Assembly (NCBI GenBank): GCA_031400455.1
Contig: JANNPX010000025.1
Span: 64,345 to 128,344 of the forward strand
Source of the DNA: Chloroflexota bacterium
GTDB lineage: Bacteria; Chloroflexota; Dehalococcoidia; DSTF01; JACRBR01
DNA length: 64,000 nucleotides
Direction of reading: 5' to 3'
Numbering within the stretch: the stretch's first letter is position 1; each line of letters opens with the position of its first letter. The notes below the pieces were generated by a model. It was not told the DNA's origin. It was given only the letters and a program-made list of their open reading frames with translations, and did no database searches. A program made the translations under genes and the position numbers. Below are positions 7,601-64,000 of the stretch, in pieces.

Positions 7601-9715
<2,115 letters not shown>

Positions 9716-49015: not shown

Positions 49016-49108
49016 CTGAAAGCCCGCGCTACCGAAGAAGGTGGCTACTGAAAGCCCGCGCCCACAGAAGATGCTACGGCTGAGAGGCTGACTAGCTGAC
49101 CCGCTACG
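49016..49108. repeat. direct repeats CTGAAAGCCCGCGC (x2) and octamer array NNGCTGAC
   Basis: 49016-29 and 49048-61 are identical. AGGCTGAC TAGCTGAC CCGCTACG overlaps the peptidase stop. Confidence 0.75.
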
Positions 49109-54652: not shown

Positions 54653-55192
54653 CTACGGCGTGGCGAGCAGTTTGCGCACCAGCGGCGGCATCAGTGCGGC
54701 GAGCGGCGAGGCCGGTTCGGAGACGTCGTTGACTTCGAACCCTCGCGGCGTCGTGCGCCACGTGCGGTAGCCACCGACGGGGATCTTGAGCCGCTTGCAG
54801 ATACGCTTGGCCGCGGCGCCGTAGCCGACGGGCACGTAGAGGTAGAAGATCTGATCGGGGATGGCCGCGTATCGCGCCCAGGCGCGCTGCGCTTCGCCCT
54901 CGGTTACGCCTTCGATGTCGACGACCGCAGCCGTCATCACCAGCTTCGTCTCGCCGGTGCTCACCTTCTCGACGACGATGATGTCCGGCGCGATCTGCTC
55001 GTCGCCGACCTGCACGGCCATCGTCACCGCCGGCACGTTACTGTGCGCCCGGTACGCCGGGTGCTCCTTCGTTGGGAAGGTGAACCGCGCCTCGACCACA
55101 CCCTGCACCGCCTTCACGAGCGACTCATCCTTCGAGCGCGTGGTCCGGTTCAGCAGCGTATCGACGTCTTCCCAGCGCGTATCGAGAGTCAT
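54653..55192 (-). CDS. hypothetical protein
   Basis: Possible PD...ExK arrangement (PDIIVVEKVSTGETK); GGAGGG RBS; no firm family. Confidence 0.45.
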   Translation of the reverse strand: MTLDTRWEDVDTLLNRTTRSKDESLVKAVQGVVEARFTFPTKEHPAYRAHSNVPAVTMAVQVGDEQIAPDIIVVEKVSTGETKLVMTAAVVDIEGVTEGEAQRAWARYAAIPDQIFYLYVPVGYGAAAKRICKRLKIPVGGYRTWRTTPRGFEVNDVSEPASPLAALMPPLVRKLLATP

Positions 55193-55263: not shown

Positions 55264-55351
55264 TGGCGGAGGGGGTGGGATTCGAACCCACGGTGGTTTG
55301 AGCCACAACCGTTTTCAAGACGGTCTCCATAGTCCACTCGGACACCCCTCC
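55264..55351 (-). tRNA. tRNA-Ser (anticodon UGA), CCA encoded
   Basis: GGAGGGGTGTCCGAGTGG...ACCGT-cTTGAaa-ACGGT...long variable arm...GTGGGTTCGAATCCCAC-CCCTCCGCCA, 88 nt. Confidence 0.9.
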
Positions 55352-55467
55352 GTTCGGTGCAATTGTAGGGGATTGGTCTTCAGTCGTCAGTTGAAGGTCG
55401 TCGGGGGCGGCGTCCGATCGGCTCTGTTACCATGCGCCGTGTTGGCGAACCGCGACGAGTTCCCGCG

Positions 55468-55515
55468 AAGCTGACCCGCTGACAGGCTGACCCGCTGACT
55501 AGCTGAAAGCTACCC
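55468..55515. repeat. octamer tandem array NNGCTGAC x5-6
   Basis: AAGCTGAC CCGCTGAC AGGCTGAC CCGCTGAC TAGCTGAA AGCTACCC, immediately before the GTG of the GT4 gene. Confidence 0.8.
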
Positions 55516-56802
55516 GTGAAGATCTGCTTCCTCATGTACCAGGGCAACATGTACTCGGGCGGGCAGGGCGTATACCTGTTCTACCTGACGCGCGAACTGG
55601 CGCGCATGGGGCACGAGGTGCATGTCATCGCAGGGCCGCCGTACCCGACACTCGATGAGCGCGTGACGACGCACAACGTCACCGACTACAGCTACTGGAC
55701 GTACCACCACTACAAGAAGGACTTCGTCTTCAACCGGCCGCCGCTCAGCTACTTCCACCCGGTCAACCTCTACGACTTCATCTCGACGCGCATCGCCCTG
55801 TCGTCGCTGCTGGCGAACTTCAGCGTGCGGGCGTACTTCAAGCTGCGTGAGCTGGCGCGCGAGCATCGATTCGACGTCGTGCACGACAACCAGACGCTGA
55901 GCTACGGAGTCTGGGCAACGCACGCAAGCGGCTTTCCGCTGGTGGCGACGATCCACCATCCGCTGTCGTACGACCTGAAAAACCAGCTCCGGCAGGCGCG
56001 CTCCACGTACGAGAAGGCACGTCGCATCCTCTGGTCGCCGTGGTACATGCAGGAGTGGACGGCGAAGAGCGTCGACCGCGTGATCGTCGTGTCCGAGACA
56101 TCGCGCGTCGACGTCGAGGAGGCGTTCCAGCTTCCACCCGAGAAGGTGCGCACCGTGTACAACGGCATCGACGTCGACACCTTCCGGCCGCTGCGGGGTG
56201 TCGAGCGCCAGCCCGACAAGCTGCTGTACGTCGGCAACTCCGAGGATCGCAACAAGGGCGCGCGCTACTTCCTCAAGGCGCTCGACATCCTCAAGGACGA
56301 GATTGACTTCCGCGTCACCTTCGTCGACAACGTGAAGCACAACCTGAAGCTGGCGCCGAAGCTGGTCGATGACTACGGCCTGAATTCGCGCGTCGACTTC
56401 ACCGGCCGCATCCCGACGGAAGACCTCGTGCGCCACTACAACGAGGCGAAGCTGCTCGTCACGTCGTCGGTACACGAGGGGTTCGGGCTGCCGCTCGCGG
56501 AGGCGATGTCGTGCGGCACGCCGACCGTCGCGACCGATATCGGCGCGTACCGGGAGATCGTCGAGCACGGCAAGAGCGGCTGGCTGGTGCCGCCGTCCGA
56601 TCCGCGGGCGCTTGCGGACGCGATCCGTATGATGTGGAATGACGTTGGCCTTCGTCAGCGGCTCAGCGAGGGCGGCCGCCAGCGCATCGAGGAGAAGTTC
56701 AACTGGCGGAAGGCCGCCGAGGAGACGCTGGCCGTGTACGAGGAGATAGTCCCGGCCAAACGCCGCACCTTCGCCATGCCGGAACAGGTTCCGGGCGCGT
56801 AG
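55516..56802 (+). CDS. GT4-family glycosyltransferase (GT-B, PimA-like), paralog 1
   Basis: GTG start; MYQGNMYSGGQGVYLFYLTRELARMGHEVHV; C-terminal EX7E-like region. Confidence 0.85.
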   Translation: MKICFLMYQGNMYSGGQGVYLFYLTRELARMGHEVHVIAGPPYPTLDERVTTHNVTDYSYWTYHHYKKDFVFNRPPLSYFHPVNLYDFISTRIALSSLLANFSVRAYFKLRELAREHRFDVVHDNQTLSYGVWATHASGFPLVATIHHPLSYDLKNQLRQARSTYEKARRILWSPWYMQEWTAKSVDRVIVVSETSRVDVEEAFQLPPEKVRTVYNGIDVDTFRPLRGVERQPDKLLYVGNSEDRNKGARYFLKALDILKDEIDFRVTFVDNVKHNLKLAPKLVDDYGLNSRVDFTGRIPTEDLVRHYNEAKLLVTSSVHEGFGLPLAEAMSCGTPTVATDIGAYREIVEHGKSGWLVPPSDPRALADAIRMMWNDVGLRQRLSEGGRQRIEEKFNWRKAAEETLAVYEEIVPAKRRTFAMPEQVPGA

Positions 56803-56817
56803 TTCCAGGTTTTCAAC

Positions 56818-57588
56818 TTGCCCGACAACATCGTCAACGTCGATTTCAAGCGCCACTTCCAAATCGAGCCCGGCGAGCGCGTGCTTGACCTCGGCTGCGG
56901 CAACGGCCGTCACACCATGGAAGCCGCGCGCTACCCCGGGCGTATCGTCGGCCTAGACTTCTCACGCGATGATCTGGTTGCGGCCAAGTTCATGTACGAC
57001 GATATGGTGCGGCAGGGGAAGATCCGCGGCCGCGCCGACTTCATCGTCGGGGACGCCCAGAACCTGCCGTTCAAAGACGGAGCGTTCGACAAGTCTCTCT
57101 GCACCGAGGTCTTCGAGCACATCCCGGACGACCGCCGCGGCATCGCGGAGTTCCTGCGCGTCACGAAGCCTGGCGCGCAGACGGTCGTCAGCATCCCGGC
57201 GTACTGGCCGGAGCGGGCGTACTGGGCGCTGAGTTGGGATTACTGGCACTCGCCGGGCGGACACGTGCGGTGGTACCGTCCGGGGCAGATGCGGCAGATC
57301 CTCGAAGAGAGCGGTATGGATGTCGAGTTCCAGCGGCGGCGGCATTCGTCGCAGAGCTTCTACTGGTTCCTGCGCTGCATCCACGGCCTGCCGAACGAGA
57401 ACTTCTTGCCGGTGCGCCTGACGTGGAAGCTGATCAACGTCCACCACAACCGCCGCCTCAAGCTGCTCGAATACATCGAGACGATCGCGAACCTCGTCAT
57501 CGGCAAGGATCTGATCCACTACGGCCACAAGCGCGGAGCGGCGAAGACGGCCGAGCCGGCGCACGAATTTGCCGGCGTGTCGCGCTAG
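56818..57588 (+). CDS. class I SAM-dependent methyltransferase, paralog 1
   Basis: VLDLGCGNGRH and LPFKDGAFD; TTG start. Confidence 0.8.
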   Translation: MPDNIVNVDFKRHFQIEPGERVLDLGCGNGRHTMEAARYPGRIVGLDFSRDDLVAAKFMYDDMVRQGKIRGRADFIVGDAQNLPFKDGAFDKSLCTEVFEHIPDDRRGIAEFLRVTKPGAQTVVSIPAYWPERAYWALSWDYWHSPGGHVRWYRPGQMRQILEESGMDVEFQRRRHSSQSFYWFLRCIHGLPNENFLPVRLTWKLINVHHNRRLKLLEYIETIANLVIGKDLIHYGHKRGAAKTAEPAHEFAGVSR

Positions 57589-57605
57589 CTCGCGAGGCTC
57601 CACGA

Positions 57606-59000
57606 ATGACCATCCAGAACGCGAGGCGCCTGCCATCTTCGGCGGAGATGACCGAGCGGTTGCAGTCGTGGATCGAGCGCTTTCGCGTTACCGGCGCGTC
57701 GATCGCTTGGATGCACGGCGACGAGGTCGCGACCGCTGCGGCGGGCGCAATTAACCTGAACACGGGCGTCGACGTCACGCAGGATACGCTGTTTCAGATC
57801 GGCTCGATTACCAAGATCTACACGACGACGCTGATCATGCAGCTCGTGGATGAAGGGCGGATCGAACTCGACGCGCCGGCGACGAATTACCTTCCCGAAC
57901 TGAGGTTCGGCAACGGAACAGCGTCGCGCACAGTCACAATCCGCCAGTTGCTCACGCACACGAGCGGCGTTGATGGCGACTTCTTCGACGACTTCGGGCG
58001 TGGCGACGATTGTGTTGAGAAGTACGTGGCTGCGTGCGGGAACCTGCCGGAGGTCTTCCCGGCCGGCACCATGTGGTCGTACTGTAATGCCGGCTTCGTG
58101 GTGCTTGGGCGCATCGTCGAGTTGATGACCGGCATGAACTGGGACGCCGCACTCAAGACGCGCATCCTCGACCCGATTGGCGCGTCCCACACTGTCACGC
58201 TTCCCGAGGTGGCGCTGTTGCACCGCACGTCTGTTGGACATGGATTCAACCTATCGCTACAGATCGAGCGCAGCCCGTACTGGAATCTCGCGCGTGCCGC
58301 CGGACCGGCAGGAGCTACTCCGTGCGCAACGGCGGCGGATCTGCTGACGTTCGCGAAAGTGCACATCGACGGCGGCGTTGCCGTAGGCGGCGCGCGCGTC
58401 CTGTCCGAAGCGTCCGTCCGGGCGATGCAGCAGTCGCAGTTCGACCTGCCGCGGGTGCCCGGTGAGGGAGCAGCGCACTGGGGACTCGGCTGGATGCTGT
58501 TCGACTGGGACGGGCGCCGAGTCATCGGCCACGACGGCGGTACGATCGGCCAGCTCTCGTCTCTGCGCATCCTGCCCGAGGAGCGCTTCACCGTTGCTGT
58601 CCTGACCAACACGACCCCAACGGGCGGGTTGCTCGGTAGCCGTGTCATGCGCTGGCTGTTCGAAGAGACGCTTGGCATCGAGATGCCGGCGCGGCCGAAG
58701 CCACCGGAATCGCCGGTAGAGATGGATGTGCGACCTTACGCCGGCGTGTACGAGCGGCTCGGGCTGCGCGTGGACATAGCGGAGAAGGACGGTCAGCTGT
58801 CGGCGAAGTACACGGGCAGCGGTGCGCTCTCGGATCTTCAAATCGATCAGCCGCCATACGACCTGATACCGGTCGAGCACGGGCTATTCGTCGAGAGGAA
58901 CCCATACACGGGGACGTACGCTCCCGTGACGTTCAGTGGATTTGAGAACGGGCGTCCGCGCTTTATAGAAGCGACACGCGTCGCACGGCGCGTAGGCTAG
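57606..59000 (+). CDS. serine hydrolase, beta-lactamase/transpeptidase fold (class C / esterase-like)
   Basis: SxxK motif IGSITKIY and later YxN/HxG-like elements; start trimmed to the ATG at 57606. Confidence 0.8.
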   Translation: MTIQNARRLPSSAEMTERLQSWIERFRVTGASIAWMHGDEVATAAAGAINLNTGVDVTQDTLFQIGSITKIYTTTLIMQLVDEGRIELDAPATNYLPELRFGNGTASRTVTIRQLLTHTSGVDGDFFDDFGRGDDCVEKYVAACGNLPEVFPAGTMWSYCNAGFVVLGRIVELMTGMNWDAALKTRILDPIGASHTVTLPEVALLHRTSVGHGFNLSLQIERSPYWNLARAAGPAGATPCATAADLLTFAKVHIDGGVAVGGARVLSEASVRAMQQSQFDLPRVPGEGAAHWGLGWMLFDWDGRRVIGHDGGTIGQLSSLRILPEERFTVAVLTNTTPTGGLLGSRVMRWLFEETLGIEMPARPKPPESPVEMDVRPYAGVYERLGLRVDIAEKDGQLSAKYTGSGALSDLQIDQPPYDLIPVEHGLFVERNPYTGTYAPVTFSGFENGRPRFIEATRVARRVG

Positions 59001-59043
59001 CTCCCTGCGTCGGCGCGCCGCAATCCGCTACCATGCCCCCGAT

Positions 59044-60489
59044 ATGGTGTCCACGCTCGACCGCTTCCAGTCCATCGATCCCGCGCTGCTCGATATCGGG
59101 CCCGCGGATCGCGTCATCGATCTGGGCTGCGGCACGGGGCGTCACGTGCTGGAACTTTCGAAGATCCCGGCCGACATCATCGGCGCTGACATCTCGCGCA
59201 CCGATATCCGCGCCGGGCGCTACCTGCTCGAGATCATGCGGCGACGCGACGAAGTGAAGGCGCGCGTCCACTGGCTGCAGACGGCGGGGGAGCGGCTGCC
59301 GTTCAAGGATGGCGCCTTCGACCGCGTCATCTGCACCGAGACGCTGGAGCACGTCGACGACGAACACGTGCTGGCGCGCGAGCTGGCTCGCGTGCTCAAG
59401 CCAGGGGGCATCCTGGCGATCAGCGTGCCAGACGAGTACTCCGAGAAGGTGTTCTGGAAGCTGTCGAAGAACTACCGCACGCATGCTGGTGGGCATGTCC
59501 GCATCTTCGGCCGCAGTGAGATCGTGCGCCTCATGCGCACATCCGGGCTGGAGCCGTACGCCGTTCGCTATCGTCACTCGCTCGAGACGGTGTACTGGCT
59601 CAGCCACGTCGCGTTCTGGAGCGACTGGGGCAAGCAGGGGCCGATCACCAGCGCCTTCCGCCGCATCCTCGACTCGCAGCGGGCGCGCGCATCCGGCATC
59701 GTCACCGCGCTCGATGACATCGGCAACCGCATCCTGCCGAAGAGCATCGTCGTATACAGCCGCAAACCGCTGCAAGGCGCGTCGCGCAACGGCGCGAGCA
59801 CCAACGGACACAGCCTCGTCGATATCGACGAGCGCACGAAGGTGGAAGTGCGAGCCGTACCAGCGCCGTTCGCCATCGATCCGGGCGCGCCGGTTGTCAC
59901 GGGTGACATCCCCGCGACCGCATTCTCATTGAAGGACGAACTGCGCATCGCGCTCAAGCTCGATCCGGAGCCGCAGAAGGCGCGGCTGATCGAGCTGCTG
60001 CGCTCGTGCCGCTTCAGCATGATGCGCGAAGTGCAGGCGCTCAGCGGCGAGCAAGCGTCGACGCCGTGGACGCCCGACGGCCGCTCGATGAAGGAGATTG
60101 TCGGGCACATCACGGGGTGGGAACGCTGGGCGACGGCCGCCCTCGATCAGATCGCGACGGGCGTCTCGGAGCCGTCCATCATGTCGCTCAGCGGCTACCC
60201 GGAGGGCATCCGCCGCTACGGTTCGGTCGAGGCGTTCAACGCCGCGCGCATGGGCGAAGCGCGCGAACAGCCATGGGCGGAGATCCTCGAGCAGAGCGAC
60301 GCGATCTTCGACGCACTGATCGCCGCAGCCGAACGTACGCCAGCCACGTCGCTATCACAGACCGCCGATTTCTTCTGGCCGGATCTCGGTGGGACGGTCC
60401 CTTGTGGCATGTATCTGCTGATGGTCTCCGCGTACCACTACCAGGAGGAACATCTGCCAGAGGTTGTCGGGCGAGTTGGTAGTTCGTAG
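59044..60489 (+). CDS. fusion: class I SAM methyltransferase (paralog 2) + C-terminal ClbS/DfsB-like (DUF1706) four-helix-bundle domain
   Basis: N-terminus: VIDLGCGTGRH and LPFKDGAFD. C-terminus: IVGHITGWERW ... AYHYQEEH. The stop TAG lies inside the heptamer array. Confidence 0.65.
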   Translation: MVSTLDRFQSIDPALLDIGPADRVIDLGCGTGRHVLELSKIPADIIGADISRTDIRAGRYLLEIMRRRDEVKARVHWLQTAGERLPFKDGAFDRVICTETLEHVDDEHVLARELARVLKPGGILAISVPDEYSEKVFWKLSKNYRTHAGGHVRIFGRSEIVRLMRTSGLEPYAVRYRHSLETVYWLSHVAFWSDWGKQGPITSAFRRILDSQRARASGIVTALDDIGNRILPKSIVVYSRKPLQGASRNGASTNGHSLVDIDERTKVEVRAVPAPFAIDPGAPVVTGDIPATAFSLKDELRIALKLDPEPQKARLIELLRSCRFSMMREVQALSGEQASTPWTPDGRSMKEIVGHITGWERWATAALDQIATGVSEPSIMSLSGYPEGIRRYGSVEAFNAARMGEAREQPWAEILEQSDAIFDALIAAAERTPATSLSQTADFFWPDLGGTVPCGMYLLMVSAYHYQEEHLPEVVGRVGSS

Positions 60490-60510
60490 TTGGCAGTTAG
60501 TAGTTCTTTG
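60476..60510. repeat. STRR-like heptamer array (left flank of the 4HB gene)
   Basis: TTGGTAG TTCGTAG TTGGCAG TTAGTAG TTCTTTG. Confidence 0.8.
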
Positions 60511-60529
60511 GTGCTGAGTTGGATGATGC

Positions 60530-60892
60530 GTGCAGGACTATAAGAAGCTCAAAGTGTGGGAGAAATCGCACGCGCTGACGCTCGCGGTCTACCGCGCCAC
60601 AAGCAAGTTCCCCAAGCACGAACAGTACGGGCTCGTCAGCCAACTGCAGCGCTGCTCCAGTTCCGTGCCGTCGAATATTGTCGAAGGTTGCGGCCTCAAC
60701 ACGAAGCCCGAACTTCTCAAGCATTTGCACTATGCGATGGGCTCGGCGAAAGAGATGGAATACCAGCTGCTACTTGCGAAGGACCTCGGCTACGTTCCGA
60801 ATGCGGCGTACGAATTGCTTGCGAAGGATGTGGACGAAGTCGAACGCATGCTCTCCGCCCTGATCTCGACGATCCGCCGAGGCAGCGCGTAG
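60530..60892 (+). CDS. four-helix-bundle protein (23S rRNA intervening-sequence protein / Avd-like family)
   Basis: WEKSHALTL...QLQRCSSSVPSNIVEG...GSAKEMEYQLLLAKDLGY is the typical signature of this family. GTG start. Markedly lower GC. Confidence 0.8.
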   Translation: MQDYKKLKVWEKSHALTLAVYRATSKFPKHEQYGLVSQLQRCSSSVPSNIVEGCGLNTKPELLKHLHYAMGSAKEMEYQLLLAKDLGYVPNAAYELLAKDVDEVERMLSALISTIRRGSA

Positions 60893-60899
60893 CGTGGAA

Positions 60900-60934
60900 G
60901 AACTACAAACCACAAACTACGAACTACAAACTCC
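60900..60934. repeat. STRR-like heptamer array, inverted orientation (right flank of the 4HB gene)
   Basis: GAACTAC AAACCAC AAACTAC GAACTAC AAACTCC, the reverse complement of the left-flank type. Confidence 0.8.
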
Positions 60935-60953
60935 CCTCAAAATCGCCTTCATC

Positions 60954-62216
60954 ATGTACCAGGGCAACATGTACTCGGGTGGGCAGGGCGTCTACCTGCA
61001 CTACATCACGCGCGAGCTCGTGAGACTGGGGCACGAAGTGCACGTCATTTCGGGGCGGCCGTATCCGCGGCTCGTCGATGGCGTCGTACACCACAAGCTG
61101 CACACCTACACGCTGTGGGCGTTTCTCGACGGGCGCGACGAACTGGCGTACAACGACGCGCCGTTCGCAATGCTGCACCCGTGGAACTTCTACGAGTTCG
61201 CTTCGACGCGCGTGTCGCTCGGCTCGCTGTTCTTTTCGTTCAGCGTGCGCGCCTACCAGAAGCTCGCTGAAATCGAGCGCCAGTACGGGCCGTTCGACCT
61301 CGTGCACGACAACCAGACGCTCGGTTACGGCATCCTCGCCATGAAGAAGCTGATGGGCAAACCGGTCGTCGCGTCGCTCCACCACCCGCTCGCGATCGAC
61401 AAGGCGAACAACTTGCGGGAGGCGAAGACCGTCGTCCGCCGCCTCTCGCGCGAGATCTGGTTCCCGGGACGCATGCAGTCGATCGTCGCGAACGGCATCG
61501 ACATGATCTTCACGGGATCGCGGAACTCCGCGCAGAGCGTCAGCGCATCGATGGATATCCCGCTCGAGCACATTCGCCAGACGCCGTACGGCGTCGACCA
61601 CGAGATCATGCACCCGCTATCCGACGCCGCGCGCGTCCCCGGTACGATCCTCTTCGTCGGCGACTCCGAAGACCGAAACAAAGGCGCACGCTTCCTCATC
61701 GAAGCCTGCGCGCAGCTGCAGCACGACACCGACTTCCGCCTGCTCTTCAAGGACAAGAAGGAGAGGGATATGACGGTCGTGCCGCCGCTCGTCTGGAAGC
61801 ACGGGCTGCAGCGATTCGTCGAGTACATCCCGCGGCTGGAGACCGACGAACTGGTGAGGCTCTACAACAGCGCCCAGATCGTCGTGTCGCCGTCGCTATA
61901 CGAAGGCTTCGGCCTGCCCGCTGCCGAGGCGATGGCCTGCGGCGCCGCAGTCATCGCAACGACGGCCGGCGCCTTTCCGGAGTTCATCGAGGACGGCCGC
62001 ACCGGCATCCTCGTCCCGCCCGGCGACGCCGACGCGCTGGCCGCCGCCATCCGCTCGCTGCTTGCTGATCCCGAACGCTGCGTCCGCATGGGCGCCGCCG
62101 CGAGCGAGCACATCCGCACGAACTTCACCTGGGAGCGCACGGCGAAGATCACGCTCGACCTGTACGGCGAGGTGCTGGCGAAGCAACCCCGTCGTCCCAC
62201 ATCCATCGTCTCGTAG
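60954..62216 (+). CDS. GT4-family glycosyltransferase, paralog 2 (possibly 5'-disrupted)
   Basis: MYQGNMYSGGQGVYLHYITRELVRLGHEVHV. The ancestral MKI... start is now LKI (CTC), so translation must begin at the ATG at 60954 or the GTG at 60894. Confidence 0.7.
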   Translation: MYQGNMYSGGQGVYLHYITRELVRLGHEVHVISGRPYPRLVDGVVHHKLHTYTLWAFLDGRDELAYNDAPFAMLHPWNFYEFASTRVSLGSLFFSFSVRAYQKLAEIERQYGPFDLVHDNQTLGYGILAMKKLMGKPVVASLHHPLAIDKANNLREAKTVVRRLSREIWFPGRMQSIVANGIDMIFTGSRNSAQSVSASMDIPLEHIRQTPYGVDHEIMHPLSDAARVPGTILFVGDSEDRNKGARFLIEACAQLQHDTDFRLLFKDKKERDMTVVPPLVWKHGLQRFVEYIPRLETDELVRLYNSAQIVVSPSLYEGFGLPAAEAMACGAAVIATTAGAFPEFIEDGRTGILVPPGDADALAAAIRSLLADPERCVRMGAAASEHIRTNFTWERTAKITLDLYGEVLAKQPRRPTSIVS

Positions 62217-62324: not shown

Positions 62325-62708
62325 ATGACAATCGAAACATCCCAGAACCGACCCGGCGACGCGCATGCCGCAGCCTCCTGCCCGGATGGGGTCGCGCTTG
62401 TGCGAGGCACGCCCGCGGCGCGTGATACTCACGCCGGTATCGCTCGCGTGATCGCCAATGGCGACGACATCGCCAGGATTCAGCCGGACGACGTGCTGGT
62501 CTGCGCGGTCGTGTCTCCGATCATGCTTGCGGCGCCCATCGGCGCGCTCGTGGCCGACGTCGGCGGCATGCTTTCGAATCCGGCGATCATTGCTCGGGAG
62601 CGGGGTATTCCCGCAGTCTTCGCGACGCGCGACGGCACGCAACGTATCCGCGATGGCCAGCGCATCGCGGTTGATGGCGCGCGTGGCGTCGTGACGATCC
62701 TCGAGTAA
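62325..62708 (+). CDS. stand-alone PEP-utilizing-enzyme mobile domain protein with His->Asn at the phospho-acceptor position
   Basis: GGMLSNPAIIARERGIPAV versus the consensus GG.TSHAAIIARE.GIP. Confidence 0.6.
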   Translation: MTIETSQNRPGDAHAAASCPDGVALVRGTPAARDTHAGIARVIANGDDIARIQPDDVLVCAVVSPIMLAAPIGALVADVGGMLSNPAIIARERGIPAVFATRDGTQRIRDGQRIAVDGARGVVTILE

Positions 62709-62733: not shown

Positions 62734-63684
62734 TCACGCGTCCTGCACGCACCTGAATCCCATATTCCCCGTCGAGCTGCCCGGCGTGTTGGCGCTGCGC
62801 GCGGCGACGCGATAGCGGTAGCAGTACGACTCGTGGCAGAGGTACGAGCCGCCGCGGATGACGCGATGTGTGCCGTCGGGAGGGCCTGCGGGATTCCCGC
62901 GCGGGCCATCGATGTGGTAGCGGGGGCTGAACCAGTCGGCGCACCACTCCCACGCGTTGCCGGACATGTTGTACAGGCCGAAGCCGTTCGGCGCGAACGA
63001 ATCGACCGGCGCGGTGCCGTAGTACCCATCGGCGACGGTGTTGGTGCGCGGAAACTCGCCCTGCCAGATGTTGCAGCGATGCTCTCCGCCCGGCGTCAGC
63101 TCGTCGCCCCACGGATACCGCTTCTGTTCGAGGCCGCCGCGCGCCGCGTACTCCCACTCTGCCTCTGTCGGCAGACGCGCGCCCGCCCACGCGCAATACG
63201 CCATTGCGTCGCCCCACGTGACGTGCACGACGGGATGCTGCCCTCGCAGGTCGATATTTGAATGCGGGCCTTCGGGATGGCGCCAGTTCGCGCCCTCGAC
63301 TTCACGCCACCACGGGGCGGCGGCGACGCCGCGCGTGTCGGGGAAGTCATCCGGCAGCAGGCCGCCGAATACGAACGATGCCGCGAAACGCTCGGCGTCG
63401 GTCACGTACGCCGTGGCGGTGACGAACGCGGCGAAGCGCTCGTTGCTGACGGCCGTGGGGTCGATCCAGAACGGCCGCACCGACACGCGCCGGACTGGCC
63501 CCTCGCCGTCCTGCGGATATCCAACACCGTTGTCCGTCCCCATCAGGAACGAGCCACCCGGTAGCAACGCCATGCGGGGAGTCGAGTCGGCCGATCGCAG
63601 AGTCGCCTTGGAGACAGGCCGGGGGTGAGGTGCTCGATCTGCCGCGGGCGCACAGCACGCAGAGTCGCGCTCGTCCTCACACAT
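62734..63684 (-). CDS. formylglycine-generating enzyme (SUMF1/FGE) family protein
   Basis: FGE-sulfatase domain (WGDAMAYCAWAG, RGGSY, GFRCV); start trimmed to MCEDE, which is uncertain. Confidence 0.75.
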   Translation of the reverse strand: MCEDERDSACCAPAADRAPHPRPVSKATLRSADSTPRMALLPGGSFLMGTDNGVGYPQDGEGPVRRVSVRPFWIDPTAVSNERFAAFVTATAYVTDAERFAASFVFGGLLPDDFPDTRGVAAAPWWREVEGANWRHPEGPHSNIDLRGQHPVVHVTWGDAMAYCAWAGARLPTEAEWEYAARGGLEQKRYPWGDELTPGGEHRCNIWQGEFPRTNTVADGYYGTAPVDSFAPNGFGLYNMSGNAWEWCADWFSPRYHIDGPRGNPAGPPDGTHRVIRGGSYLCHESYCYRYRVAARSANTPGSSTGNMGFRCVQDA

Positions 63685-63733
63685 CTCGATCCTCTGCGCT
63701 CTCTGCGGCTCTGCGGTGAATCCCGTCGCACAT

Positions 63734-64000
63734 CTACTGGCGCGCCATCTCGATCCGCGCCTCCTGCTCGAGGTCCCGCGGCGGCTCCGGCCCCGATACA
63801 TCGACGATGACCCTGCGCAGCGTGCCCGTGAACCGGAACGGCGAAGCGTAGTCGTTCGTCACCGGATTGCCCTCGTCACGCCCGACCTGGAAGCCGACGC
63901 CCAGGCCGAACAGGAACGGCACCGTGCGCGGGATCTGTCCCTCGCCGCACGCCTGCCCGTTGATGTACAGCCGGAGCACGCCGCCCGGACCGAACGGCTG
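63734..64000 (-). CDS. sulfatase, C-terminal fragment (gene continues beyond the window)
   Basis: Typical sulfatase C-terminus; FGE lies immediately downstream. Confidence 0.5.
   Translation of the reverse strand, partial: QPFGPGGVLRLYINGQACGEGQIPRTVPFLFGLGVGFQVGRDEGNPVTNDYASPFRFTGTLRRVIVDVSGPEPPRDLEQEARIEMARQ

Follow-up and report, generated by a model that had tools for sequence, protein, structure and literature searches.

A conserved Dehalococcoidia gene set with two glycosyltransferases and two methyltransferases resembling mycobacterial ManT and pMeT3

We analyzed a 64,000-nucleotide stretch of a Chloroflexota contig (JANNPX010000025.1; hereafter the window), in which six closely packed, co-directional genes occupy positions 55516 to 62216 of the + strand. 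They encode, in order, a GT4 glycosyltransferase (GT4-1), a methyltransferase (MT1), a beta-lactamase-fold hydrolase, a second methyltransferase fused to a four-helix bundle (MT2), a four-helix-bundle (4HB) protein of the 23S rRNA intervening-sequence type (IVP), and a second glycosyltransferase (GT4-2). The genes described in the earlier note are all present on this strand, and Pfam HMM searches confirmed their families. Gaps of 1 to 43 nt separate the genes, an operon-like packing, and no terminator-like site was found on the + strand within the cluster. The region is a chromosomal operon of an uncultured Chloroflexota lineage (GTDB class Dehalococcoidia).

Table 1. Positions of the genes, domains and repeats at the locus, numbered within the window.
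Feature	Positions	Strand	Evidence
tRNA-Ser(UGA)	55264–55351	-	ARAGORN; Rfam tRNA, 54 bits; conserved syntenic landmark
Array, ~4.8 copies of 8-nt unit GCTGACCC	55468–55506	+	TRF
GT4-1, ManT-like retaining GT-B glycosyltransferase, 428 aa	55516–56802	+	Pfam, PDB match
MT1, pMeT3-like class I SAM methyltransferase, 256 aa	56818–57588	+	Pfam, pMeT3 match
Family VIII carboxylesterase-like serine hydrolase, 464 aa	57606–59000	+	PF00144, PDB 7SPN
MT2 fusion gene, whole, 481 aa	59044–60489	+	ORF and Pfam
MT2, pMeT3-like methyltransferase domain, fusion aa 1–245	59044–59778	+	Pfam, pMeT3 match
Fusion linker, aa about 246–292	59779–59919	+	Low pLDDT, alignment length variation
DinB-superfamily four-helix-bundle domain, fusion aa 293–481	59920–60489	+	AF2, Foldseek, Pfam
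Inverted repeat, left arm, 39 nt	60470–60508	.	Repeat search, 85% complementary
23S-rRNA-IVS-type four-helix-bundle protein gene, 120 aa	60530–60892	+	PF05635, TIGR02436
GT4-2, second ManT-like glycosyltransferase, 440 aa, GTG start 60894	60894–62216	+	Pfam, PDB match
Inverted repeat, right arm	60898–60936	.	Repeat search; translated into GT4-2 N-terminus

Both glycosyltransferases match the Pfam families Glycos_transf_1 and Glyco_transf_4 (E 1e-17 to 1e-36), and their suspected paralogy is borne out by 44% identity over 419 aa (E 1e-124), far above chance. [quoted passage not shown] The alignments run end to end, over residues 1–412 for GT4-1 (E 2e-57; second-best match 1.7e-23) and 6–430 for GT4-2 (E 7e-58), and among PDB structures ManT leads the other relatives by more than 100 bits in both cases. 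Conserved motifs are intact, namely the glycine loop (G15GQG in GT4-1, G29GQG in GT4-2), the lysine equivalent to ManT K240 (K247, K263) and the EX7E motif equivalent to E313/E321 (E321x7E329, E337x7E345). On these matches, we assign the two proteins as soluble retaining GT-B glycosyltransferases, with ManT as their closest characterized relative among solved structures. One substitution counts against a ManT-type reading: ManT Asp293, the proposed contact to the guanine of GDP-Man, aligns with Thr in both proteins.

MT1 matches the Pfam families Methyltransf_11, 25, 31 and 23, and the MT2 domain matches Methyltransf_23, 11 and 25. These two proteins are likewise paralogs, as had been proposed, with 32% identity over 233 aa between MT1 and the N-terminal half of the fusion (E 3e-46, again far above chance) and a similarity that reaches beyond the Rossmann core into a common C-terminal extension. 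Against Mycolicibacterium hassiacum pMeT3, the putative 3-O-methyltransferase of MMP, which is without biochemical characterization (PMC9883506), MT1 aligns over its full length (34% identity over 243 aa, E 3e-51) and MT2 aligns with 34% identity over 236 aa (E 4e-43). Motifs outside the Rossmann core are shared with pMeT3, and the signature W.LS..Y....GGH.R.Y / H...YW is common to the family. Judged by sequence, the two SAM methyltransferases belong to the pMeT3 family, and MT1 is a predicted sugar O-methyltransferase. A stand-alone methyltransferase of the same family (40% identical) occurs without any GT4 neighbor, so membership in the family does not by itself imply this pathway.

In all, 43 non-redundant loci, every one from a Chloroflexota/Dehalococcoidia MAG, show the arrangement GT4-MT-MT(-DinB)-GT4; 30 of them carry the fusion, and 13 have an MT2 without the C-terminal domain. 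Where the contig reaches far enough, GT4-1 and MT1 are nearly always found upstream; orthologs of GT4-1 are 64–95% identical across 40+ loci, and those of GT4-2 are 51–92% identical. Dozens of species share the GT4-MT-MT-GT4 set, and the gene order that the earlier note called unusual is the conserved one within this lineage. The tRNA-Ser gene is divergent from the cluster, and at least 17 other related loci have this tRNA upstream of their GT4-1; therefore, the cluster is chromosomal rather than an island, and the adjacency noted earlier is real but reflects old synteny, not an integration site. Sister loci carry four to six GT4 paralogs, with a sugar nucleotidyltransferase (NTP_transferase) near one locus (L042) and a 4,6-dehydratase at another (L035), features that better fit a hetero-oligosaccharide than a homopolymer.

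The hydrolase ORF spans 57234–59000, and ATG 57606 is its likely start. The protein matches Beta-lactamase PF00144 (E 3e-63), and its best PDB match is 7SPN (E 4e-70, residues 15–419), the structure of IS11, a characterized family VIII esterase with a lipocalin lid from an uncultured Chloroflexota (PMC9972953). The S-x-x-K, Y-x-N and His motifs of IS11 (455 aa) fall at nearly identical residue numbers in the window hydrolase (S67ITK70, Y159CN161, H309DG), whose beta-lactamase-like domain is followed by a C-terminal extension where IS11 has its lid. With this nearest solved relative and intact catalytic motifs, the esterase-like reading of the protein has gained support. The window gene differs from that of IS11 in lying inside a glycan operon, though it does so in just 4 of the 30 fusion loci (the window, L010, L011 and L028), and its insertion spot also hosts other, unrelated ORFs in L011. 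The hydrolase is an accessory gene at a variable insertion spot, outside the conserved set; the expected neighborhood co-occurrence holds for the GT4 and MT genes but not for this supposed pathway member.

The gene order given in the earlier note also includes, as a 4HB cassette, the small gene between the fusion and GT4-2. Its product belongs to the 23S rRNA intervening-sequence protein family, scoring above cut-offs (PF05635, E 2e-36; TIGR02436, 120.7 bits against a cut-off of 24), and of the 30 fusion loci, 10 carry the gene at this site while the others lack it there. In L011 the gene lies before GT4-1. An imperfect inverted repeat, of which the left arm consists of AGTTNNN units, brackets the gene, a layout to be expected for IVS-type elements; equivalent arms occur in L001, L006, L007 and L011. 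Whereas IVS elements reside in 23S rDNA, this one is inserted between two protein-coding genes, and its arms provide the fusion gene with its final codons and GT4-2 with its first, the right arm being read in GT4-2 as an N-terminal extension (EELQTTNYELQT). The 4HB/IVP gene is an inserted cassette unrelated to the pathway. The octamer array reported upstream of the cluster is real but short. Given its place between a conserved -10-like box (TACCAT, about 55421–55426) and the GT4-1 start codon, it is probably part of the 5′ leader, and in L006, L007, L011, L020, L025 and L030 the same place is taken by CTGAC-type arrays. The array looks like a single arm of the repeat arrays found on either side of 4HB/IVP cassettes; no inverted partner of it was found here.

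Structure prediction of the fusion, one of the checks proposed earlier, gave a confident fold for the C-terminal bundle (pLDDT 92) but not for the whole protein (pTM 0.50), with pLDDT below 50 at aa 246–272 and 284–292. The linker, which varies widely in length in the alignment and contains a conserved VEVRAVPAPF motif, is modeled as a flexible or disordered tether between the bundle and MT2. Foldseek identified the same four-helix-bundle fold (probability 1.0) in YfiT (1RXQ; E 6e-4), MDMPI (2NSF; E 4e-3) and ClbS/DUF1706 structures (6ANR, 7MTL; the highest TM-scores, up to 0.67/0.77), with only 12–16% identity to DinB-superfamily structures. DUF1706, over almost the whole of its profile, and DinB_2 are both matched by 19 of 19 homologs (best E about 1e-8). 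The window protein itself scores below the DUF1706 cut-off (20.6 versus 24.2 bits), and sits exactly at the cut-off for DinB_2 (24.8 bits). H355 aligns with His67, the first metal-ligand histidine of YfiT, and is invariant along with H465, Y466 and H470; the domain is probably metal-binding. Its C-terminal histidines are spaced H-x4-H, whereas H-x3-H is usual in the superfamily, and its fusion to a methyltransferase sets it further apart. Its nearest relatives are stand-alone DinB-like proteins that carry no annotation, and in a 1.8-billion-protein library the domain forms its own cluster, with a single representative below E 1e-30. The domain is a DinB-clan bundle about equidistant from DinB_2/YfiT/MDMPI and DUF1706/ClbS, so the ClbS label it had been given stands for the superfamily but not as a specific name.

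The defined MMP cluster comprises manT, pmeT3, mmpH and meT1 (M. hassiacum MHAS_04402–04405; PMC9883506), arranged in the genome as ManT-pMeT3-MmpH-MeT1. In the reciprocal search, ManT and pMeT3 pick out exactly the two GT4 and two MT genes within the window, and all four are full-length homologs. MT1 follows GT4-1 as pMeT3 follows ManT, with the same strand and tight spacing, and in both sets the proteins are all soluble and export genes are absent. The differences are also substantial: the window set comes from Chloroflexota rather than Actinomycetota, has both GT and MT duplicated, with up to four or five further GT4s in sister lineages, bears a DinB-type domain on one MT, and is without MeT1 (a 1-O-methyltransferase, Methyltransf_24) and MmpH (an endo-mannosidase), which make up half of the MMP cluster. 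Identity is just 33–34% (33% for GT4-1 and ManT), and because ManT resembles the alpha-glucosyltransferases Rv3032 and Rv1212c at this same level (PMC9883506), sugar and linkage cannot be read from it. The same logic is described for the mycobacterial 6-O-methylglucose lipopolysaccharide (MGLP) cluster Rv3030–Rv3037c, in which the soluble GT4 alpha-1,4-glucosyltransferase Rv3032 extends an alpha-1,4 chain and two SAM methyltransferases (Rv3030, Rv3037c) serve a cytoplasmic polymethylated product (PMC2674218). Since MGLP carries acyl groups, an esterase would have a part to play there. GH57 branching enzyme, acyltransferase and GpgS-type initiation genes are absent from the conserved set here.

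These likenesses, together with the co-occurrence of the GT4/MT/MT set in 43 loci, support the earlier proposal that the duplicated genes make a methylated glycoside or oligosaccharide, and on balance they point to a pathway of the ManT/pMeT3 type whose cytoplasmic product would be an O-methylated oligo- or polysaccharide, its sugar and linkage being predictions. Counting against this, the organisms are uncultured and no report describes any product from them.

An unlikely but credible alternative is a methylated cell-envelope glycoconjugate (a glycolipid, an S-layer or other protein glycan, or an exopolysaccharide), assembled by peripheral GT4s on a membrane-bound acceptor with export genes elsewhere, in place of a storage or chaperone-like polymer of the cytoplasm. 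GT4 is the typical family of PIM, LPS-core and EPS assembly, generic NCBIfam matches include EpsE, PglH/J and WcaL, and the GT4 paralogs of sister loci, typical of defined repeat units, would suit this reading, as would the neighboring nucleotidyltransferase and dehydratase genes. However, envelope-type GT4 structures in the PDB score far below ManT, and none of the six translations, inspected directly, has a hydrophobic N-terminus. Moreover, the conserved set showed no transporter (including ABC exporters), flippase, polymerase, polyprenyl-phosphate or initiating phosphoglycosyl transferase, and no membrane protein, with flanks annotated in full at a few loci.

We consider it improbable that the product is a small methylated glycoside, such as a low-molecular-weight thiol or compatible solute, made by an MshA/BshA-like GT4, modified by the methyltransferases in the manner of N-methyl-bacillithiol, and handled by the DinB domain as a thiol transferase. 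The DinB superfamily does hold mycothiol and bacillithiol S-transferases and MDMPI, which are among the Foldseek and Pfam matches, and the NCBIfam matches of the GT4s include models for MshA and BshA. Those two matches (113 and 99 bits) stop well short of the curated cut-offs of 462 and 274, ManT has similar scores with both models (111 and 74 bits), and solved MshA/BshA structures reach about 70 bits against 198 for ManT. BshB/BshC- and MshB/C/D-like genes are absent from the conserved set, and 13 otherwise equivalent loci are without the DinB domain. A true ClbS-type self-protection hydrolase, in a cluster making or detoxifying a reactive colibactin-like product, is scarcely credible despite the TM-scores and DUF1706 matches, given 15–16% identity to ClbS, the sub-cut-off score, the retained YfiT-type histidine, the closest relatives noted above, and the absence of PKS/NRPS or other toxin-biosynthesis genes from the cluster and 40+ related loci.

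In a ManT/pMeT3-type pathway, the GT4s would build a short alpha-linked hexose chain, probably 1->4, from a nucleotide-hexose in the cytoplasm, the paralogs, two here and up to four or five in sister lineages, probably dividing initiation from elongation or forming different linkages. The two methyltransferases would then O-methylate this chain at two positions or on two residue classes. The result would be an analog of mycobacterial MMP or MGLP, a polymethylated oligo- or polysaccharide. More speculatively, the DinB bundle could be either a hydrolytic/processing module or a substrate-holding one that replaces MeT1 or MmpH functions, and in the few genomes that have it, the IS11-like cytoplasmic esterase might strip acyl groups from the glycan. 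What is new is the likeness of this cluster to ManT/pMeT3, and the bacteria may produce a comparable chain of methylated sugars.

By ORF calling, the cluster at 55516-62216 consists of six genes, all on the + strand and arranged head to tail with 1 to 43 nt between neighbors, and a terminator scan found no + strand terminator-like site within it (see table). For the hydrolase, the mechanical ORF start is at 57234, and the ATG located 17 nt after the MT1 stop was taken instead. The G+C content of the window is ~65%, with no compositional break at the cluster. The family assignments of the cluster genes were upheld by Pfam and NCBIfam, and the GT4, methyltransferase, and beta-lactamase-fold families are those that the earlier note had read from the sequence. 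The gene content and paralogy it described were likewise confirmed: GT4-1 and GT4-2 are 44% identical over 419 residues, and MT1 and the N-terminal half of the fusion protein (MT2) are 32% identical over 233 residues, a match that reaches past the Rossmann core. Both GT4 proteins have a Glyco_transf_4 N-domain and a Glycos_transf_1 C-domain above the Pfam thresholds together with the EX7E motif, as is characteristic of retaining CAZy GT4/GT-B enzymes. Both methyltransferases have the Rossmann-type Methyltransf_11/25 domain with the GxGxG SAM loop of class I SAM-dependent enzymes, and the DLGCGxGRH loop is kept in all MT members aligned. Outside the conserved cluster, downstream of GT4-2, are an orphan 127-aa PEP-utilising-enzyme mobile domain found in the window only and a gene of the FGE-sulfatase family that is kept only in the three closest relatives (L006, L007, L008).

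Coordinates of features in the window and in related loci (L numbers) fetched for comparison
Feature	Location	Coordinates	Strand	Model or remark
Second solo CTGAC-type octamer array	window	49079-49102
179-aa protein	window	54653-55192	-
tRNA-Ser(UGA)	window		opposite to cluster	164 nt upstream of cluster
G-rich segment, then TAnnAT	window	~55415-55430		gttaccatgcgcc
Octamer array	window	55468-55506		39 nt, ~4.8 units of GCTGACCC
GT4-1	window	55516-56802	+
MT1	window	56818-57588	+
Beta-lactamase-fold protein	window	57606-59000	+	PF00144
Methyltransferase fusion (MT2::DinB)	window	59044-60489	+	481 aa
Four-helix-bundle (4HB) gene	window	60530-60892	+	120 aa; PF05635, TIGR02436
GT4-2	window	60894-62216	+
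PEP-utilising-enzyme mobile domain	window	62325-62708	+	127 aa
FGE-sulfatase-family gene	window	62734-63801	-
Inverted-repeat arms around 4HB gene	window	60470-60508 and 60898-60936
4HB cassette	window	60470-60936
4HB cassette	L001	11435-11922
4HB cassette	L006	9424-9907
4HB cassette	L007	7213-7667
4HB cassette	L011	1632-2125
Variable MT1-MT2 interval	L011	4406-5770
Variable MT1-MT2 interval	L010	4720-5973
Esterase and MT2::DinB fusion	L028	6578-9398
Cluster with extra GT4 paralogs	L042	6584-13316
Stand-alone pMeT3-family MT	L052, L053, L059	~7941-8711
CoA-transferase pair ahead of full cluster	L002	4479-7057

Among solved structures, 7QSG is the top match of both GT4-1 (E 2e-57, 198 bits) and GT4-2 (E 7e-58, 200 bits), with end-to-end alignments; the second-best solved relatives reach only 86 to 97 bits (E 1.7e-23 and E 1.2e-26, respectively). 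This structure is ManT of Mycolicibacterium hassiacum, the alpha-(1->4)-mannosyltransferase responsible for elongation of cytoplasmic 3-O-methylmannose polysaccharide (MMP) (PMC9883506). Reconstruction of the ManT sequence from the alignment led to the exact protein (P0121) and to its locus (L004), where the gene order is ManT, pMeT3, MmpH, and then MeT1 on the opposite strand. The putative 3-O-methyltransferase pMeT3 (PMC9883506) is 34% identical both to MT1 (243 residues, E 3e-51) and to the MT half of the fusion (236 residues, E 4e-43), and a seven-sequence MT alignment has common motifs outside the SAM-binding core (W.LS..Y....GGH.R.Y, H...YW, and a C-terminal N...K...Y..K). When used as queries against the full 64-kb window, ManT and pMeT3 matched exactly the two GT4 proteins and the two methyltransferases. 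A pMeT3-type methyltransferase next to a glycosyltransferase is thus a feature shared with the MMP cluster at the family level, and MT1 follows GT4-1 just as pMeT3 follows ManT.

The GT4 proteins, which are ~33% identical to ManT, retain the glycine loop, a lysine matching K240 of ManT, and the EX7E glutamates that correspond to ManT E313/E321, residues that have been shown to be necessary for ManT activity (PMC9883506). Several points limit how far this homology can be taken. Where ManT has Asp293, for which contact with the GDP-mannose guanine has been proposed (PMC9883506), both GT4 proteins have Thr. ManT is itself 28 to 33% identical to the alpha-1,4-glucosyltransferases Rv3032 and Rv1212c (PMC9883506), and the solved enzyme of the Rv1212c type, 6TVP, scores only 62 bits with GT4-1; Rv3032 has no solved structure. 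Note that dedicated ManT and pMeT3 models are absent from NCBIfam, where ManT and GT4-1 give a similar, generic sub-threshold pattern. At the level of sequence, the cluster belongs to the class of ManT/pMeT3-type GT-MT modules; the sugar, linkage, and methyl position of the product are predictions.

In contrast to the mycobacterial MMP cluster, whose product is a 3-O-methyl-alpha-1,4-mannan capped by 1-O-methyl, the Chloroflexota cluster has neither MeT1 nor MmpH. The 1-O-methyltransferase MeT1 (Methyltransf_24) shows no similarity to the fusion protein in pairwise comparison, tblastn at E 1e-5 to 1e-8 gives no match for it in the 64-kb window or 83 related loci, and the (alpha/alpha)6-barrel endo-mannosidase MmpH has no match in the window or related loci. 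The absence of these two proteins places the cluster outside the mycobacterial MMP system, to which it is nevertheless related.

The fusion protein has hundreds of close relatives, and all source names attached to them are Chloroflexi/Chloroflexota or Dehalococcoidia. A scan of one genome per species yielded 79 related loci, onto which the cluster proteins were mapped by tblastn. Thirty non-redundant loci carry the MT2::DinB fusion (type A), and nearly all of these with enough contig have GT4-1 and MT1 directly upstream. GT4-2 lies downstream on the same strand in ~15 type A loci and on the opposite strand in 3, and none is present within 6 to 8 kb in 7; the 4HB gene separates the fusion from GT4-2 in 10. 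Thirteen more loci (type B), at ~50% identity, encode GT4, MT1, and an MT2 that has no DinB domain, after which come one to three additional ManT-like GT4 paralogs. Orthologs of each paralog are discernible in both types; therefore, both duplications, of GT and of MT, are old, and fusion to DinB came later. The co-occurrence anticipated by the earlier note holds for the GT4/MT/MT set, which recurs in related loci, but not for the beta-lactamase-fold gene, which among type A loci is found only in the window, L010, L011, and L028. The cluster is a real, conserved operon.

At least 17 other loci have a tRNA-Ser gene upstream of GT4-1, and a divergently oriented 179-aa neighbor is present in 10, which indicates that the cluster occupies a stable chromosomal position. 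A genomic island at tRNA-Ser is ruled out by this synteny of tRNA, neighbor, and cluster over many genomes and by the flat G+C profile. The 179-aa protein itself, 62 to 88% identical among the loci that keep it beside tRNA-Ser, has no Pfam or NCBIfam match; by eye, it contains a PD...(V)EK motif that recalls PD-(D/E)xK nucleases.

Several related loci differ in their surroundings. In the sister lineages (L035-L047 and L055), the extra ManT-like GT4 paralogs are 45 to 60% identical to each other. Neighbors in L042 include a sugar nucleotidyltransferase (NTP_transferase) and a FabI-like reductase, and a GDP-mannose/dTDP-glucose 4,6-dehydratase-family gene lies nearby in L035. Three loci (L052, L053, and L059) encode a stand-alone pMeT3-family methyltransferase, ~40% identical to MT2 and with no GT4 neighbor. 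Upstream of it are two genes for family III CoA-transferases, separated from it by a DD-carboxypeptidase gene on the opposite strand. In L002, this CoA-transferase pair stands ahead of the full cluster, and the stand-alone gene could represent a cluster remnant at this site or the ancestral state.

The C-terminal part of the fusion (residues 293-481) was described in the earlier note as a ClbS-like domain, a label that holds only at the level of the superfamily. Its Pfam scores are sub- or at-threshold and about equal for DinB_2 (24.8 bits), MDMPI_N (23.8), and DUF1706 (20.6, below the PF08020 gathering score of 24.2), and each of 19 homologues matches DUF1706 as well as DinB_2, the best E-values being near 1e-8 (1.1e-8 for DUF1706). 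The structure prediction suggested in that note gave a confident four-helix bundle of the DinB superfamily (AF2 model of the domain from 19 sequences, pLDDT 92, pTM 0.88). A Foldseek search of this model against the PDB returned DinB-superfamily proteins only, with probability 1.0 for YfiT, MDMPI, MST, and ClbS. By E-value, YfiT ranks best (6e-4), followed by mycothiol-dependent maleylpyruvate isomerase; by TM-score, ClbS and other DUF1706 structures do (0.67/0.77); and all matches are 12 to 16% identical. No PKS or NRPS genes are present in the window cluster or related loci, and the domain is fused to a methyltransferase, unlike ClbS, a stand-alone resistance protein associated with a genotoxin (pks) island. 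By Pfam searches with the domain and 18 homologues, by AF2 with Foldseek, and by a profile search against the PDB, the domain groups with the DinB clan and not specifically with ClbS; ClbS is related to it in fold and does not define its family.

The domain is probably metal binding. Its invariant H355 aligns in the profile search with His67 of YfiT, which we take to be a metal ligand of that protein. Residues H465, Y466, and H470 are also invariant among the homologues and E469 is nearly so, and H465, E469, and H470 sit in the last helix, but with H-x4-H spacing; H355, H465, and H470 are candidates for a metal-binding histidine triad. Of 1.8 billion library representatives, none apart from the cluster of the fusion itself scored <1e-30; the next relatives of the domain are stand-alone proteins of ~200 aa, mostly with no Pfam match or only a weak one to DinB_2. 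In the full-length AF2 model (pTM 0.50), the linker at residues 246-292 is disordered, and the model therefore gives no evidence that the DinB domain docks onto MT2 through a fixed interface. It is an unclassified DinB-type bundle tethered to MT2 and the sole part of the cluster for which we found no precedent. It may act as a hydrolytic or processing module, hold a substrate, or catalyze a thiol-dependent reaction.

The earlier note's identification of an esterase-like serine hydrolase is supported. The closest solved relative of the beta-lactamase-fold protein is IS11 (7SPN, E 4e-70), a thermostable family VIII carboxylesterase from an uncultured member of the Chloroflexota, in which a lipocalin lid accompanies the beta-lactamase-like domain (PMC9972953). 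Corresponding to the IS11 catalytic residues Ser68, Lys71, Tyr160, Asn162, and His299 (PMC9972953), the window protein has S67, K70, Y159, N161, and H309. The S-x-x-K, Y-x-N, and H/K-x-G motifs of the family VIII/class C fold thus appear as S67ITK, Y159CN, and H309DG within its PF00144 domain (E 3e-63), and with none of the beta-lactamase equivalog models does the protein come near the cut-off score. The N-terminus, as read from the sequence, is not hydrophobic. Two unrelated ORFs (161 aa, and 230 aa on the opposite strand) share the MT1-MT2 interval in L011, which is therefore a variable insertion spot, and the esterase gene is accessory, outside the conserved system. Because 6-O-methylglucose lipopolysaccharide (MGLP) and Streptomyces MMP are acylated, the esterase could, by analogy, act on an acylated glycan, which we offer as conjecture. 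A role as an MmpH analog by homology was rejected, as this nonconserved, IS11-like esterase has no similarity to MmpH. In L028, the esterase and fusion genes are adjacent, with no GT4 or MT1 gene within 8 kb on either side, an arrangement which hints that the two could cooperate independently of the GT4 proteins.

The 4HB gene encodes a member of the 23S rRNA IVS protein family (PF05635, 124.9 bits with a cut-off of 33.8; TIGR02436, 120.7 bits with a cut-off of 24) and is an inserted, accessory IVS-type cassette. An imperfect inverted repeat of 39 nt frames it; the arms are 85% complementary and consist of 7-nt units. The left arm encodes the last codons of the fusion gene, and the right arm is translated as an N-terminal extension of GT4-2. 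Because the arms overlap the flanking coding ends, insertion changes the protein sequence on both sides, at the C-terminus of the fusion and at the N-terminus of GT4-2. Equivalent arms of 32 to 44 nt surround the gene in L001, L006, L007, and L011, and loci without the gene are also without the arms' spacing. Cassette arms consist of tandem 7- to 8-nt units of the AGTTNNN / NNNAACT or CTGAC types.

The octamer array noted earlier ahead of the cluster is indeed present just before the GT4-1 start codon and looks like a single cassette arm. CTGAC-type arrays also occur upstream of GT4-1 in L006, L007, L011, L020, L025, and L030, and the L011 array belongs to an inserted cassette, of which it is the right arm. 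Such solo arrays, of which the window holds a second without an adjacent 4HB gene, may be cassette remnants, cassette targets, or leader elements. Ahead of the first array is a conserved -10-like box, and after it comes the GT4-1 start codon. The box belongs to a conserved G-rich segment followed by TAnnAT, with equivalents in ~15 related loci; in diverged genomes it varies (TACCAT, TAGTAT, TACGAT, and TAGGAT) and is located 60 to 90 nt upstream of the GT4-1 start. Although a consensus promoter scan did not pick it up, this segment is probably the -10 region of the operon promoter. An RNA element in the leader or cluster was discounted: Rfam matches are to tRNA only, and the octamer array has no inverted partner arm in the window.

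The best-supported reading is that the operon makes a cytoplasmic O-methylated oligo- or polysaccharide by means of a duplicated ManT/pMeT3-type module. This agrees with the earlier suggestion of methylated glycoside or oligosaccharide synthesis, in that the GT4 proteins and methyltransferases are ManT/pMeT3 homologues and the set is conserved. In the conserved set, with flanks annotated in full for a few loci, there is no transporter, flippase, or initiating phosphoglycosyl transferase, which favors a cytoplasmic product. We put forward more tentatively, and with greater doubt than conviction, the fuller proposal that uncultured soil and sediment Chloroflexota make a cytoplasmic polymethylated polysaccharide in this way with a DinB-type metal domain replacing MeT1 and MmpH. 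Tethered to one methyltransferase, this domain would be responsible for capping the chain, controlling its length, or recycling it, functions that belong to MeT1 and MmpH in mycobacteria.

MMP and MGLP are regarded as peculiar to mycobacteria and a small number of further actinobacteria, and their physiological role is debated, with proposals including fatty-acid handling and cold adaptation. To our knowledge, polymethylated polysaccharides have so far been reported only from Actinomycetota (Mycobacterium, Nocardia, and Streptomyces). The practical value of the present finding is modest, as it concerns uncultured organisms and a predicted product. Nevertheless, the Chloroflexota paralogs are further candidates for expression of putative pMeT3-family enzymes, and the natural variation among loci (two MTs, two to six GTs, and the presence or absence of the DinB domain or esterase) could help to dissect the control of chain length and methylation pattern. 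The MT::DinB fusion places an unclassified branch of the DinB superfamily in the functional context of sugar methylation, and a vertically inherited, conserved ManT/pMeT3-type operon in a distant phylum would broaden the distribution of this chemistry.
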